Assembly: GCA_903889245.1 (NCBI GenBank)
Contig: CAISWQ010000079.1
Coordinates: 876 to 64,875 of the forward strand
Direction: 5' to 3'
Length of the DNA stretch: 64,000 nucleotides
From: an uncultured Lentisphaerota bacterium
Lineage (GTDB): Bacteria > Verrucomicrobiota > Kiritimatiellia > CAIQIC01
The translations under genes were made by a program, and so were the position numbers. How positions within the stretch are numbered: the stretch's first letter is position 1; every line of letters begins with the position of its first letter. Below, in pieces: positions 24,783 to 25,458 of this stretch. The notes under the pieces were generated by a model. It saw only the letters and a list, made by a program, of their open reading frames with translations. It was not told the DNA's origin and did no database searches.

Positions 24783-24828
24783 CCGGGTTTTTGAATGAGG
24801 AAAGCAGGAAGGCAGGAAAGGAGAGATC

Positions 24829-25227
24829 ATGTTAAGCCAGCAGGACCTGACGGGGAAAATCATCGGGGCGGCGATTGCCGTCCACAGGGAAGTGGGGCCG
24901 GGTTTTTTGGAGAATATCTACGAGAATGCGCTGTGTGTGGAATTTGATGCGCAAGGCATCCCGTATGAGCGGCAGAAGGTGATCAACATCTTCTACCGCG
25001 ACAAGAACGTCGGCGAGCATCGGCTGGATGTGCTGGTCGCCGGCTCGGTGGTTGTAGAGTTGAAGGCCATCCGCGCGCTGGAGGACATCCATTTCGCCAT
25101 CGTGCGCTCCTATTTGAAGGCGCTGAATTTGGAATGTGGTTTGATCCTGAATTTTGCCGCCATGCCACTGACGATCAAGCGGGTGGGTAGGGAGTTTGCA
25201 CAGGATCAACAGAAGGAAGCAGAATGA
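24829..25227 (+). CDS. GxxExxY family protein (PD-(D/E)xK-like; family often found in rRNA intervening sequences)
   Basis: AGGAAAGGAGAG Shine-Dalgarno then ATG 24829. MLSQQDLTGKIIGAAIAVHREVGPGFLENIYENAL... matches the GxxExxY signature. GC is about 55% against a roughly 67% background. Confidence 0.75.
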   Translation: MLSQQDLTGKIIGAAIAVHREVGPGFLENIYENALCVEFDAQGIPYERQKVINIFYRDKNVGEHRLDVLVAGSVVVELKAIRALEDIHFAIVRSYLKALNLECGLILNFAAMPLTIKRVGREFAQDQQKEAE

Positions 25228-25458
25228 ATTTGGAAGACAGGAAAACAGGAACGGAACCGGAGGCGCAGCCCTCCTTTCCTGCTTTCAGGAGTTCCAAATT
25301 CCAAAAAATTCCACGAGAATGATAAAGCGAGTGCGTGTCATTCGATACAAACCTGATCAAAAGACGAAAGAAAAATGAATTTGGAAAGCAGGAAGGCAGG
25401 AACGGAACCGGAAGGCGCAGCCCTCCTTTCCTGCTTTCATGAGTTCCAAATTCCAAAC
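25222..25458. repeat. Two about 85-bp direct repeats (25222-25305 and 25374-25458), each with an internal hairpin GAAAGCAGGAAGG...CCTCCTTTCCTGCTTTC. A partial third copy at 24795-24826 sits just upstream of the GxxExxY gene.
   Basis: gaatgaatttggaagacaggaaaacaggaacggaaccggaggcgcagccctcctttcctgctttcaggagttccaaattccaaa versus gaatgaatttggaaagcaggaaggcaggaacggaaccggaaggcgcagccctcctttcctgctttcatgagttccaaattccaaa. Low-GC DNA (about 45%). Confidence 0.8.

Follow-up and report, generated by a model that had tools for sequence, protein, structure and literature searches.

Intervening sequences (IVSs) of 23S rRNA, such as those of Leptospira and Coxiella, carry an ORF of ~120–130 aa that lies in a loop closed by a long stem of terminal inverted repeats of 20–30 bp. 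The ORF encodes a four-helix bundle, and the insert sits in helix 9, 25, or 45 of the rRNA, embedded in and co-oriented with its host transcription unit. In Coxiella, the terminal stem of the IVS measures 28 bp, the ORF lies in its loop, and RNase III excises the insert; IVSs are sporadically distributed and have long been suspected of being mobile, and a mobile-element origin has already been put forward for them (PMC4990558). The locus described here, a gene of the GxxExxY family with its flanking arms, matches the architecture of these ORF-bearing IVSs, including the length of the stem, the embedding in and co-orientation with the host unit, the sporadic distribution, and the suspected mobility, but its host site is a spacer between genes in a protein-coding transcription unit, its ORF encodes a predicted PD-(D/E)xK nuclease instead of a four-helix bundle, and its arms are made of tandem 8-nt units. 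We consider it probable that the locus is an IVS-like, hairpin-bounded nuclease cassette, derived from an insertion and now resident, with presumed mobility and RNA processing. Comparable in another way are REPINs and RAYTs: copies of a short palindromic repeat lie on either side of one gene, and further copies are scattered through the genome as hairpins. RAYTs are REP-associated tyrosine transposases of the HUH/Y1 class whose genes are flanked by REPs, and REPINs are typically dense in the genome.

The gene lies on the forward strand at positions 24829–25227 of the window (the whole stretch of DNA analyzed, 64 kb) and encodes 132 aa. Its product matches the profiles PF13366 (PDDEXK_3; E-value 4.8e-37, 127.3 bits for a cut-off of 22) and TIGR04256 (GxxExxY; 131.5 bits for a cut-off of 35). 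PF13366 is the sole family detected, so that membership in PF05635 (S23p, four-helix-bundle) is excluded, and no HUH/Y1 transposase was found at 24829–25227. The GxxExxY motif reads G25-F-L-E28-N-I-Y31; among 34 homologs, G25 and E28 never vary and conservation of Y31 is at least 90%, while of the predicted catalytic residues D67 is at least 90% conserved and E77 and K79 are invariant. An AlphaFold2 model (pLDDT 89) shows the order alpha-alpha-beta-beta-beta-alpha-beta-beta, and its best structural matches in the PDB, all weak (E-value ~2e-3, TM ~0.5), are the Cas4 proteins SSO0001 and Pcal_0546, lambda exonuclease, and AddB nuclease domains; a search of the PDB by sequence gave no meaningful match. 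The model leads us to predict a minimal RecB/Cas4-like PD-(D/E)xK nuclease fold and, along with the profile matches, agrees with the initial annotation, which had named a PD-(D/E)xK-like GxxExxY protein. PADLOC defense-system models matched the locus with 0 families at E ≤ 0.1, and we found no functional study of GxxExxY, PF13366, or TIGR04256 in the literature, nor any description of the flanking bracket reported below. A first search alone returned >6000 clusters at E ≤ 1e-10; PF13366/GxxExxY and PF05635 are both very large, multi-copy families, the former without known function.

The ORF is fitted exactly between inverted arms, each a run of 2–4 tandem 8-nt units, rich in purines on the upstream side and in pyrimidines on the downstream side, with AATNTGGAA...TTCCANATT as arm termini. 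The 5′ arm, L0 (24788–24826, forward strand; TTTTTGAATGAGGAAAGCAGGAAGGCAGGAAAGGAGAG), is built of such units and includes the half-repeat GAATGAGGAAAGCAGGAAGGCAGGAAAGGAGAG at 24793–24825, followed by ATC and then by the ATG. A partial repeat had thus been correctly placed 3 nt before the ATG, although the coordinates given for it, 24795–24826, need to be shifted. A Shine-Dalgarno-like GGAAAGGAG is found within L0, 5–13 nt before the ATG. Downstream of the gene, hairpin H1 (25225–25308, forward strand) comprises arm L1 (25226–25255), a loop, and arm R1 (25272–25306); the stop codon TGA (25225–25227), inside GAATGAATTTGG, falls within its first bases, and the initial annotation had likewise put it in the first repeat. 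Hairpin H2 (25376–25460, forward strand) comprises arms L2 (25377–25406) and R2 (25424–25457). Each repeat had been said to form a strong hairpin, and folding gave −31.0 kcal/mol for H1 (z −3.5) and −36.4 kcal/mol for H2 (z −4.3), energies that 0 of 200 shuffles reached in either case. L0 is 78–80% complementary to R1 and R2 over 35–36 nt, and the duplex energies (L0:R1 −41.2, L0:R2 −41.6, L2:R2 −37.5, and L1:R1 −30.7 kcal/mol) show that the 3′ arms of the hairpins pair best with L0, so that the ORF comes to lie in the loop of a stem formed over a long range. Terminal inverted repeats thus form a long stem around the GxxExxY ORF, as in IVSs. What had been described as a repeat-gene-repeat-repeat layout is actually an inverted-repeat bracket (L0 with R) to which a local competitor arm is added. 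The complementarity between L0 and the 3′ arms does not figure in the initial annotation.

The two hairpins belong to a longer direct repeat, in which 25173–25308 aligns to 25321–25460 (113 of 142 positions identical, period 151–152 nt); two repeats had indeed been recognized, but as units of 85 bp. The repeat unit takes in a decayed copy of the last ~57 nt of the gene (...IKRVRVIRYKPDQKTKEK vs. ...IKRVGREFAQDQQKEAE, both ending in a stop). This remnant of a GxxExxY gene 3′-end spans 25319–25378 on the forward strand (MIKRVRVIRYKPDQKTKEK, then a stop), and its coding-derived part, between H1 and H2, carries indels. The 20-mer GGAAAGCAGGAAGGCAGGAA is found twice, against 0.01 expected. Alignment with H2 and with the hairpin of the ortholog L004 identifies H1 as the extra, more diverged copy and H2 as the ortholog of the one hairpin that L004 has. 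The decayed gene tail between the two hairpins marks the doubling of H1 and H2 as an old, local tandem duplication, in which the gene 3′-end was copied together with its hairpin. We found no further arm copies in the window and, in the repeat region, no Rfam family at E ≤ 10 apart from chance miRNA-like hairpin matches. A T6 run begins 12 nt past H2, and an A6, not a U tract, directly follows H1; neither hairpin was called by a terminator scan of the forward strand, which speaks against H1 and H2 as intrinsic (Rho-independent) terminators, and a combined promoter and terminator scan gave nothing above shuffles.

The cassette occupies the same position in three lineages. L004 (87% aa identity) has L0, conserved at 31 of 33 nt, the gene, and one hairpin only, the second full hairpin repeat being lineage-specific; in L005 (78%), L0 is a near-perfect complement of R and a shorter L1 is also present. 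H2 and the hairpin of L004 show 3 differences in 78 nt (96% identical) while pS equals 0.50 (P = 3e-19), so that the arms are under constraint and much better conserved than synonymous sites. A conserved leader separates H2 from the ATG of a 2183-aa gene (25461–25546, forward strand, containing TTTTTTACAAAC); it is common to L004 and partly to L005. It is missing from the empty orthologous sites found in more distant relatives, L159 and L160, in which the VWA gene is followed by a 47–52-nt spacer and then by the giant gene. Such empty sites fit a cassette that inserted. The gene itself has a dN/dS of 0.08–0.10 in ortholog comparisons, indicative of strong purifying selection. Given this selection and the synteny in three lineages, the sequences point to an old, retained insertion that is inherited vertically and has not been mobile recently. 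Identical GxxExxY proteins on 7–10 contigs had the same context each time, and no copy was seen in different contexts, which rules against recent transposition of these genes; no target-site duplication was evident by eye at the inspected ends. Of the mobile cassette proposed initially, the inserted cassette is retained, as indicated by the empty sites, and recent mobility is not. A gene that benefits its host would show such strong purifying selection and stable synteny just as well.

The bracket is not peculiar to this locus. We surveyed 86 GxxExxY ORFs from diverse metagenomes and 3268 other ORFs, scoring arms by ungapped complementarity in place of RNA duplex energies, which had a high background on long flanks. 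A flanking inverted repeat with a score of at least 14 was present around 40 of the 86 GxxExxY ORFs and 13 of the 3268 others (P = 4e-57); at a score of at least 11, the shares were 62% and 1.7%. Depending on the threshold, 47–62% of GxxExxY ORFs and 0.4–1.7% of other ORFs are thus bracketed, an enrichment of ~100-fold, and ~40–50% of the related genes have no detectable bracket. The association of repeat and gene suspected at our locus therefore holds among its relatives; of the caveat that the repeat might be only a local duplication, the second full repeat is one, whereas the association, being family-wide, is not. In bracketed loci, the arms adjoin the ATG and the stop; they are built of 8-nt units (lag-8 self-identity 0.35–0.43, compared with 0.23 inside genes) whose sequence varies from locus to locus with complementarity retained, each of the types CAGGAA/TTCCTG, CACGAAA/TTTCGTG, CGCGAAA/TTTCGCG, CACGGAA/TTCCGTG, and CTCAGAA/TTCTGAG being complementary. 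The cognate downstream flank was the best partner out of 72 in 19 loci and among the top five in about half. The purine arm lies upstream in 30 of 32 bracketed loci, the pyrimidine arm coming first in L083 and L101; a separate classification of layouts counts 1 pyrimidine-first locus. GxxExxY copies occupy many different spacers between co-directional housekeeping genes (nuoF|nuoG, upstream of ftsY, nadA, moxR), with 28 upstream neighbors on the same strand and 0 on the opposite one, and 35 and 1, respectively, for downstream neighbors. Full local hairpins next to the gene, like H1/H2, are also found in L139, L101, and L128.

The same design recurs in the window itself around a gene of the very family named after IVSs. 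At 46416–46824 (forward strand), a second cassette, squeezed between co-directional ORFs, consists of a PF05635 gene (“23S rRNA intervening sequence protein”, four-helix-bundle; 46442–46798) and arms at 46416–46443 and 46798–46824 made of NNNTCAGC units. PF05635 genes carry the same kind of bracket in the window and in L119. The window contains no rRNA, nor any Rfam family at gathering score, in agreement with the earlier statement that the GxxExxY gene lies outside rRNA. GxxExxY proteins had also been called notorious for occurring in rRNA IVSs; none of 80 related loci is in rRNA, so that this reputation does not describe the subfamily of our gene. A systematic bracket of covarying, 8-nt-periodic arms offers a testable hypothesis on the nature of GxxExxY and PF05635 genes, and it links them to a 30-year-old puzzle, the origin of rRNA intervening sequences and their ORFs. 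The GxxExxY cassette, which resembles the gene-carrying hairpin inserts of rRNA, may represent an unrecognized kind of insertion element.

The arm motif was also found at 73 loci, against ~1 expected, mostly in Verrucomicrobiota, Lentisphaerota, and Kiritimatiellota. Most of these are gene-free hairpins, a repeat family that annotations of Verrucomicrobiota and related phyla have missed; their orientation relative to neighboring genes showed no clear bias, the ORF heuristic leaving most cases unclear. Of 75 arm sites, 8 touch a GxxExxY gene, be it intact or frameshifted, truncated, or internally deleted, in contrast to the case, named initially as evidence against a cassette, in which repeat copies are never associated with such genes. 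The gene may have entered a pre-existing hairpin, or the hairpins may have arisen from gene-bearing elements. In a REPIN/RAYT-like system, the hairpins would be the primary replicators, a dispersed REP-like population, and would be mobilized or maintained by GxxExxY, a domesticated nuclease present in single copy, inherited vertically, and flanked by its own substrate as RAYTs are by REPs. The arm copies and full local hairpins beside the gene are what such a system predicts, as are the dispersal of mostly gene-free hairpins in the same phyla, at least two further gene-less arm sites (L042, L067) in the sister genome (assembly JAPLSZ01), and a gene under purifying selection that, like RAYT genes with their non-autonomous hairpins, is inherited vertically and, for identical proteins, keeps one context. 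We nevertheless hold this explanation to be unlikely: the protein is of the PD-(D/E)xK and not of the Y1 class, hairpin density in these 64 kb of the genome is low compared with REPINs, with no other arm copy, the GxxExxY family is multi-copy and its different members sit in many different spacers, and the decayed or internally deleted genes inside brackets (L024, L045) suggest gene-bearing units that turn over.

Two further kinds of element share some of these traits. Like free-standing homing endonuclease genes, the GxxExxY gene is a small nuclease gene wedged between conserved co-directional housekeeping genes, and its presence or absence varies at orthologous sites; phage seg and mob genes provide examples of such “intronless homing”, and PD-(D/E)xK homing endonucleases also exist. 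To our knowledge, however, homing endonuclease genes lack long inverted repeats at their flanks and give rise to no gene-free hairpins, and GxxExxY cassettes differ from them in both respects. MITEs and their parent TIR transposons likewise have terminal inverted repeats and exist with and without the gene, and L024, with an internal deletion inside the bracket, represents an intermediate between the two forms; the cassette, however, lacks a DDE transposase, and we saw neither a target-site duplication nor near-identical copies in different contexts.

Under our favored reading, that of an IVS-like cassette, the element would have been inserted between the VWA gene and the giant gene, in their spacer, and transcription would reach it by read-through from the host unit. 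When single-stranded, either as a transcript or as DNA during replication or repair, the arms would pair and loop out the ORF, structurally insulating the insert from its surroundings, and by analogy with IVSs the stem could be cut by RNase III. The extra 5′-type arm beside R (L1 or L2) would form a local hairpin that competes with L0, and this hairpin would free the ribosome-binding purine tract of L0. Spread or maintenance of the element would likely be the work of the predicted nuclease, and the gene-free hairpins may be deletion derivatives, analogous to MITEs or REPINs. A wider proposal, which we put forward as a tentative possibility, is that GxxExxY and PF05635 cassettes form an unrecognized class of hairpin-ended elements inserting into spacers of highly conserved transcription units, with the nuclease as mobility or maintenance enzyme, gene-free hairpins as miniature derivatives, and rRNA IVSs as members of the same class that landed in rRNA.

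A different role for the pairing would be cis-regulation of a host gene, L0, L1, and R being alternative mRNA pairings that control translation or mRNA stability, with no mobile-element history. The Shine-Dalgarno-like sequence in L0 and an anti-Shine-Dalgarno-like CCUCCUUUCC in R, which contains CTCCTTTCC, are suggestive of such control, L0:R is stronger than L1:R while L1/L2 offer a competing local hairpin, and arm conservation, the nearly constant upstream position of the purine arm, and co-directional neighbors fit as well. But mismatches in the arms show no asymmetry on the sense strand (30 G:U, 25 A:C, and 51 others in 1158 positions), and without an excess of G:U we refrain from calling any RNA structure conserved; the stem may act at the level of DNA, or recognition by a protein may maintain both arms. 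Since the same arms also abound as gene-free hairpins and around pseudogenes, empty orthologous sites exist, the unrelated family PF05635 has the same kind of bracket, and the pyrimidine arm can come first (L083, L101), we regard pure cis-regulation as improbable. Mere coincidence of an SD-like purine tract with a terminator hairpin, complementary only as simple sequence, could draw on the low complexity of the arms (GGAA-rich, 8-nt units) and on the T6 run after H2, but is very hard to reconcile with the ranking of cognate flanks, the covariation of non-GGAA arm types (CACGAAA, CGCGAAA, CTCAGAA) on both sides, the enrichment over other ORFs, and the failure of the forward-strand scan to call H1 or H2. 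As regards annotation, the arms are without stop codons and in frame with upstream start codons, and such in-frame arms can be misread as N-terminal extensions.

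The 132-aa GxxExxY protein encoded on the plus strand at 24829–25227 is a clear member of PF13366 (PDDEXK_3; E-value 4.8e-37) and matches NCBIfam TIGR04256 ('GxxExxY protein') with 131.5 bits. On the same strand, a purine-rich tract, L0 (24788–24826), lies directly 5' of the ORF; its core, GAATGAGGAAAGCAGGAAGGCAGGAAAGGAGAG (24793–24825), is followed by ATC and then by the ATG. The TGA stop codon (25225–25227) falls within the first bases of a hairpin unit, H1 (arms L1, 25226–25255, and R1, 25272–25306), and a second unit, H2 (L2, 25377–25406; R2, 25424–25457), follows 151–152 nt after it, also on the plus strand. 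Both fold better than 200 of 200 shuffles (H1, −31.0 kcal/mol, z −3.5; H2, −36.4 kcal/mol, z −4.3), and a 20-mer common to them occurs twice, against 0.01 occurrences expected. The initial annotation had described a half-repeat, the gene, and a stop codon inside the first of two hairpin repeats; this layout is indeed present and its elements are real, but the coordinates were 2 nt off and the repeat length had been set too short. Between H1 and H2 lies the degenerate remnant of the 3'-terminal ~57 nt of a GxxExxY gene (the two tails, each read to its stop, are MIKRVRVIRYKPDQKTKEK and LTIKRVGREFAQDQQKEAE), and the true duplicated unit is 'gene tail + hairpin' (25173–25308 and 25321–25460, 113 of 142 positions identical in the alignment). 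Its coding-derived portion contains indels and is about 65–70% identical, whereas the hairpin portion is 93–96% identical; judged from these identities, the doubling of H1 and H2 is an old duplication in which the gene fragment has degenerated and the hairpin was retained. L0 and the 3' arms R1 and R2 are reverse complements (pairs I1 and I2), and according to duplex energies L0 binds these arms more strongly (L0:R1, −41.2 kcal/mol; L0:R2, −41.6 kcal/mol) than do their local partners (L1:R1, −30.7 kcal/mol; L2:R2, −37.5 kcal/mol). The ORF thus lies in the loop of a potential stem-loop of ~450 nt, in which L1 and L2 would be local competitors for R.

Using a profile of 34 homologs, we retrieved 80 metagenome loci whose proteins are 52–70% identical to that of the window. 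Locus after locus, a purine-rich repeat tract ends at the ATG or no more than a few nt from it, and its reverse complement begins equally close to the stop. When this bracket was scored as complementarity without gaps between flanks of 70 nt (upstream of the gene) and 110 nt (downstream), 32 of 72 loci reached 11 or more and outscored every shuffle. In a wider test, with flexible start codons and all 3354 ORFs of 70–300 aa in the sequences examined, an inverted-repeat score of at least 14 was reached by 40 of 86 GxxExxY ORFs (47%) against 13 of 3268 other ORFs (0.4%; P = 4e-57, Fisher's test), and a score of at least 11 by 62% (n = 86) against 1.7% (n = 3268). The arms are made of tandem 8-nt units, with a lag-8 self-identity of 0.35 upstream, 0.43 downstream, and 0.23 inside genes. 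Arm types vary by locus yet stay complementary (CAGGAA/TTCCTG, CACGAAA/TTTCGTG, CGCGAAA/TTTCGCG, CACGGAA/TTCCGTG, CTCAGAA/TTCTGAG), the cognate downstream flank being the best partner among 72 for 19 loci, and in one large subset of loci the outermost unit is conserved (AATNTGGAA...TTCCANATT). Of the 32 bracketed loci, 30 have the purine arm on the upstream side, an asymmetry that is independent of the strand read, and the window-type layout, in which an extra 5'-type arm after the stop gives a local hairpin, is found in at least four independent loci (L090, L101, L128, and L154). Among mismatches between arms, G:U is not in excess on the sense strand (30 G:U, 25 A:C, 51 other), so selection on RNA structure is not demonstrated; the inverted symmetry could be kept at the DNA level or by a protein recognizing both ends. 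Very long arms are seen in three related loci, L113, L144, and L114 (around 1680–2072; up to about 65 nt, with 60 Watson-Crick pairs), whose many units suggest growth and shrinkage by slippage of 8-nt units.

In all assignable cases but one, neighbors lie on the GxxExxY strand (28/28 upstream, 35/36 downstream), with spacers ranging from a few nt to a few tens. GxxExxY genes recur in the spacer between a nuoF-like gene and nuoG, and at positions directly 5' of ftsY-, nadA-, and moxR-like genes (MoxR named from Pfam, the nuoF-, nuoG-, ftsY-, and nadA-like neighbors from N-terminal sequences). None of the 80 related loci contains an rRNA or any other Rfam family. Several copies are decayed: four are frameshifted (L025, L045, L122, and L157), one is internally deleted within a still exact bracket (L024), and in L087, as in the window, a 5'-truncated copy stands in tandem behind a full one. 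At L087 (1316–1663), a 3' arm precedes the first 12 nuoG-like codons, which run into the truncated GxxExxY copy (profile positions 63–143); either the genome is truly rearranged here or the assembly is chimeric.

About 10 contigs, drawn from several samples, carry the identical protein, and its context is the same on all of them. One ortholog (L004, 87% identical) is syntenic (cystatin-like, DUF6794, GxxExxY, and giant genes) and carries L0, the gene, and one hairpin, which aligns with H2 and not with H1. In a more distant one (L005, 78% identical, from a Kiritimatiellota metagenome-assembled genome), the gene has the VWA/YfbK_C gene and the giant gene as its immediate neighbors; L0 (AATTTGGAACTCAGGAAAGCAGGAA) complements R almost perfectly, and L1 has one 8-nt unit less. 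The dN/dS of the ORF (0.069/0.83 against L004, about 0.10 against L005) indicates strong purifying selection, and the arms are also constrained: of 78 hairpin positions, 3 differ between H2 and L004, against half of the synonymous sites (P about 3e-19). In L159 and L160, where the giant gene is 54–57% identical, the VWA gene is followed by a 47–52-nt spacer and the giant gene, the GxxExxY gene and arms being absent from this spacer. The cassette would thus be an insertion, or conceivably have been lost elsewhere, and the insertion would predate the divergence of the lineages leading to the window, L004, and L005. Comparison of GxxExxY contexts gave no sign of recent movement.

One of the few strongly bracketed non-GxxExxY ORFs, at locus L119, encodes a PF05635 '23S rRNA intervening sequence protein'. 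The window has its own PF05635 gene (46442–46798, plus strand; E-value 3.9e-38), with inverted arms of NNNTCAGC 8-nt units (46416–46443 and 46798–46824, plus strand); this cassette (46416–46824) sits outside any rRNA, wedged between co-directional ORFs (45855–46409 and 46832–48091) with 6–8 nt outside the arms. The shared bracket links the architecture to classical intervening sequences (IVSs). [quoted passage not shown] The GxxExxY cassette resembles such an ORF-bearing IVS, but its host is the spacer of an mRNA instead of rRNA. The principle of an ORF enclosed by an inverted-repeat stem is already known from rRNA IVSs; the searchable literature holds no description of the bracket around GxxExxY genes, and no published function was found for the protein. 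Its AlphaFold2 model is confident (pLDDT 89, pTM 0.82), and the best PDB structure matches, weak but consistent (E about 2e-3, TM about 0.5), are Cas4 (SSO0001, Pcal_0546), lambda exonuclease, and AddB/AdnAB nuclease domains. The D...ExK signature (D67, E77, K79) is conserved among homologs. Sequence searches found no matching solved structure, and no defence-system model matched.

An exact search of one genome per species with the 3'-arm pattern CCTGNTTTCNNGAGTTCCAAATT (20 specified bases) returned 73 loci against about 1 expected by chance, mostly in Verrucomicrobiota, plus Lentisphaerota, Kiritimatiellota (including the L005 genome), and Planctomycetota. About 30 of 75 arm sites are plain hairpins with the purine arm 25–160 nt upstream, about 10 have a partner 240–720 nt upstream, and about 35 have none at up to 3 mismatches. 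Eight touch a GxxExxY gene, whether intact, frameshifted, internally deleted, or truncated, far above the gene's genomic share, yet they are the smaller part of the sites. The repeat is thus no mere oddity of this locus, and its tie to the gene is not a strict one. Exact copies also occur in metagenome-assembled genomes labelled Gemmatimonas (L015, L030, L031, L060) and Bacteroidia, Chloroflexota, Nitrospirales, Chitinophagaceae, and Acidobacteriota (L027, L038, L065, L068, L075), within long stop-free runs in L027, L030, and L068; these few may reflect misbinning, horizontal transfer, or chance coding matches.

These data fit a nuclease cassette that is bounded by hairpins, derives from an insertion, and has stayed resident in the window lineage under selective maintenance, a reading tempered by the lack of both a sense-strand G:U excess and signs of recent movement. 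Co-orientation and tight spacing suggest expression by read-through transcription from the host unit. Pairing of the arms in single-stranded nucleic acid would loop out the ORF, bring flanking host sequences together, and form an RNase III-type substrate; L1 or L2, competing with L0 for R, might free the ribosome-binding tract, and the predicted nuclease may act on the arms for spread or maintenance. A serious rival is a REPIN/RAYT-like system, in which the hairpins would be what replicates and the nuclease their domesticated partner. In L165, a Y1_Tnp (IS200/RAYT-type) gene (1674–1970) is found one gene downstream of the GxxExxY cassette, after a MoxR gene; this may be coincidence, though relevant to that rival. 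A purely cis-regulatory role of the arms explains the window locus but leaves the gene-free hairpins, pseudogenes, empty sites, and PF05635 parallel unexplained. That GxxExxY cassettes form a distinct, widespread class of hairpin-ended element is a tentative proposal, which we consider possible though less likely than not.

Another palindrome, TTTCCAAGSCTTGGAAA, has 67 matches on both strands of the window (0.19 expected), in arrays of 2–4 copies with strict ~31-nt spacing at about 15 intergenic places between 5489 and 61868 (e.g., 11021–11068, 17037–17147, 24670–24780, 40893–41004, and 50053–50163). Four copies lie directly 5' of L0; they are absent from L004 and present in the spacer of a distant relative (L161). 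It resembles a repeat family of its own, either REP-like or protein-binding. The zf-HC2/PATR/VWA/YfbK_C protein gene (18273–22742) and the 2183-aa protein gene (25547–32098; no Pfam domain) are conserved neighbors, directly adjacent in L159 and L160 and separated in the window lineage by the cystatin-like gene, the DUF6794 gene, and the GxxExxY cassette. A minus-strand 2223-aa ORF (25466–32137) overlaps almost the whole 2183-aa gene and probably represents a shadow ORF that is not coding. A ~140-nt direct repeat (22858–22991 and 23725–23864, 86–90% identical), containing the palindrome CCGATACCT.GAACTACTAGGTATC, precedes the cystatin-like and DUF6794 genes, whose ORF N-termini (MSQAGESFRSR... 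and MSQVGERFRRR...) probably come from translating this repeat.
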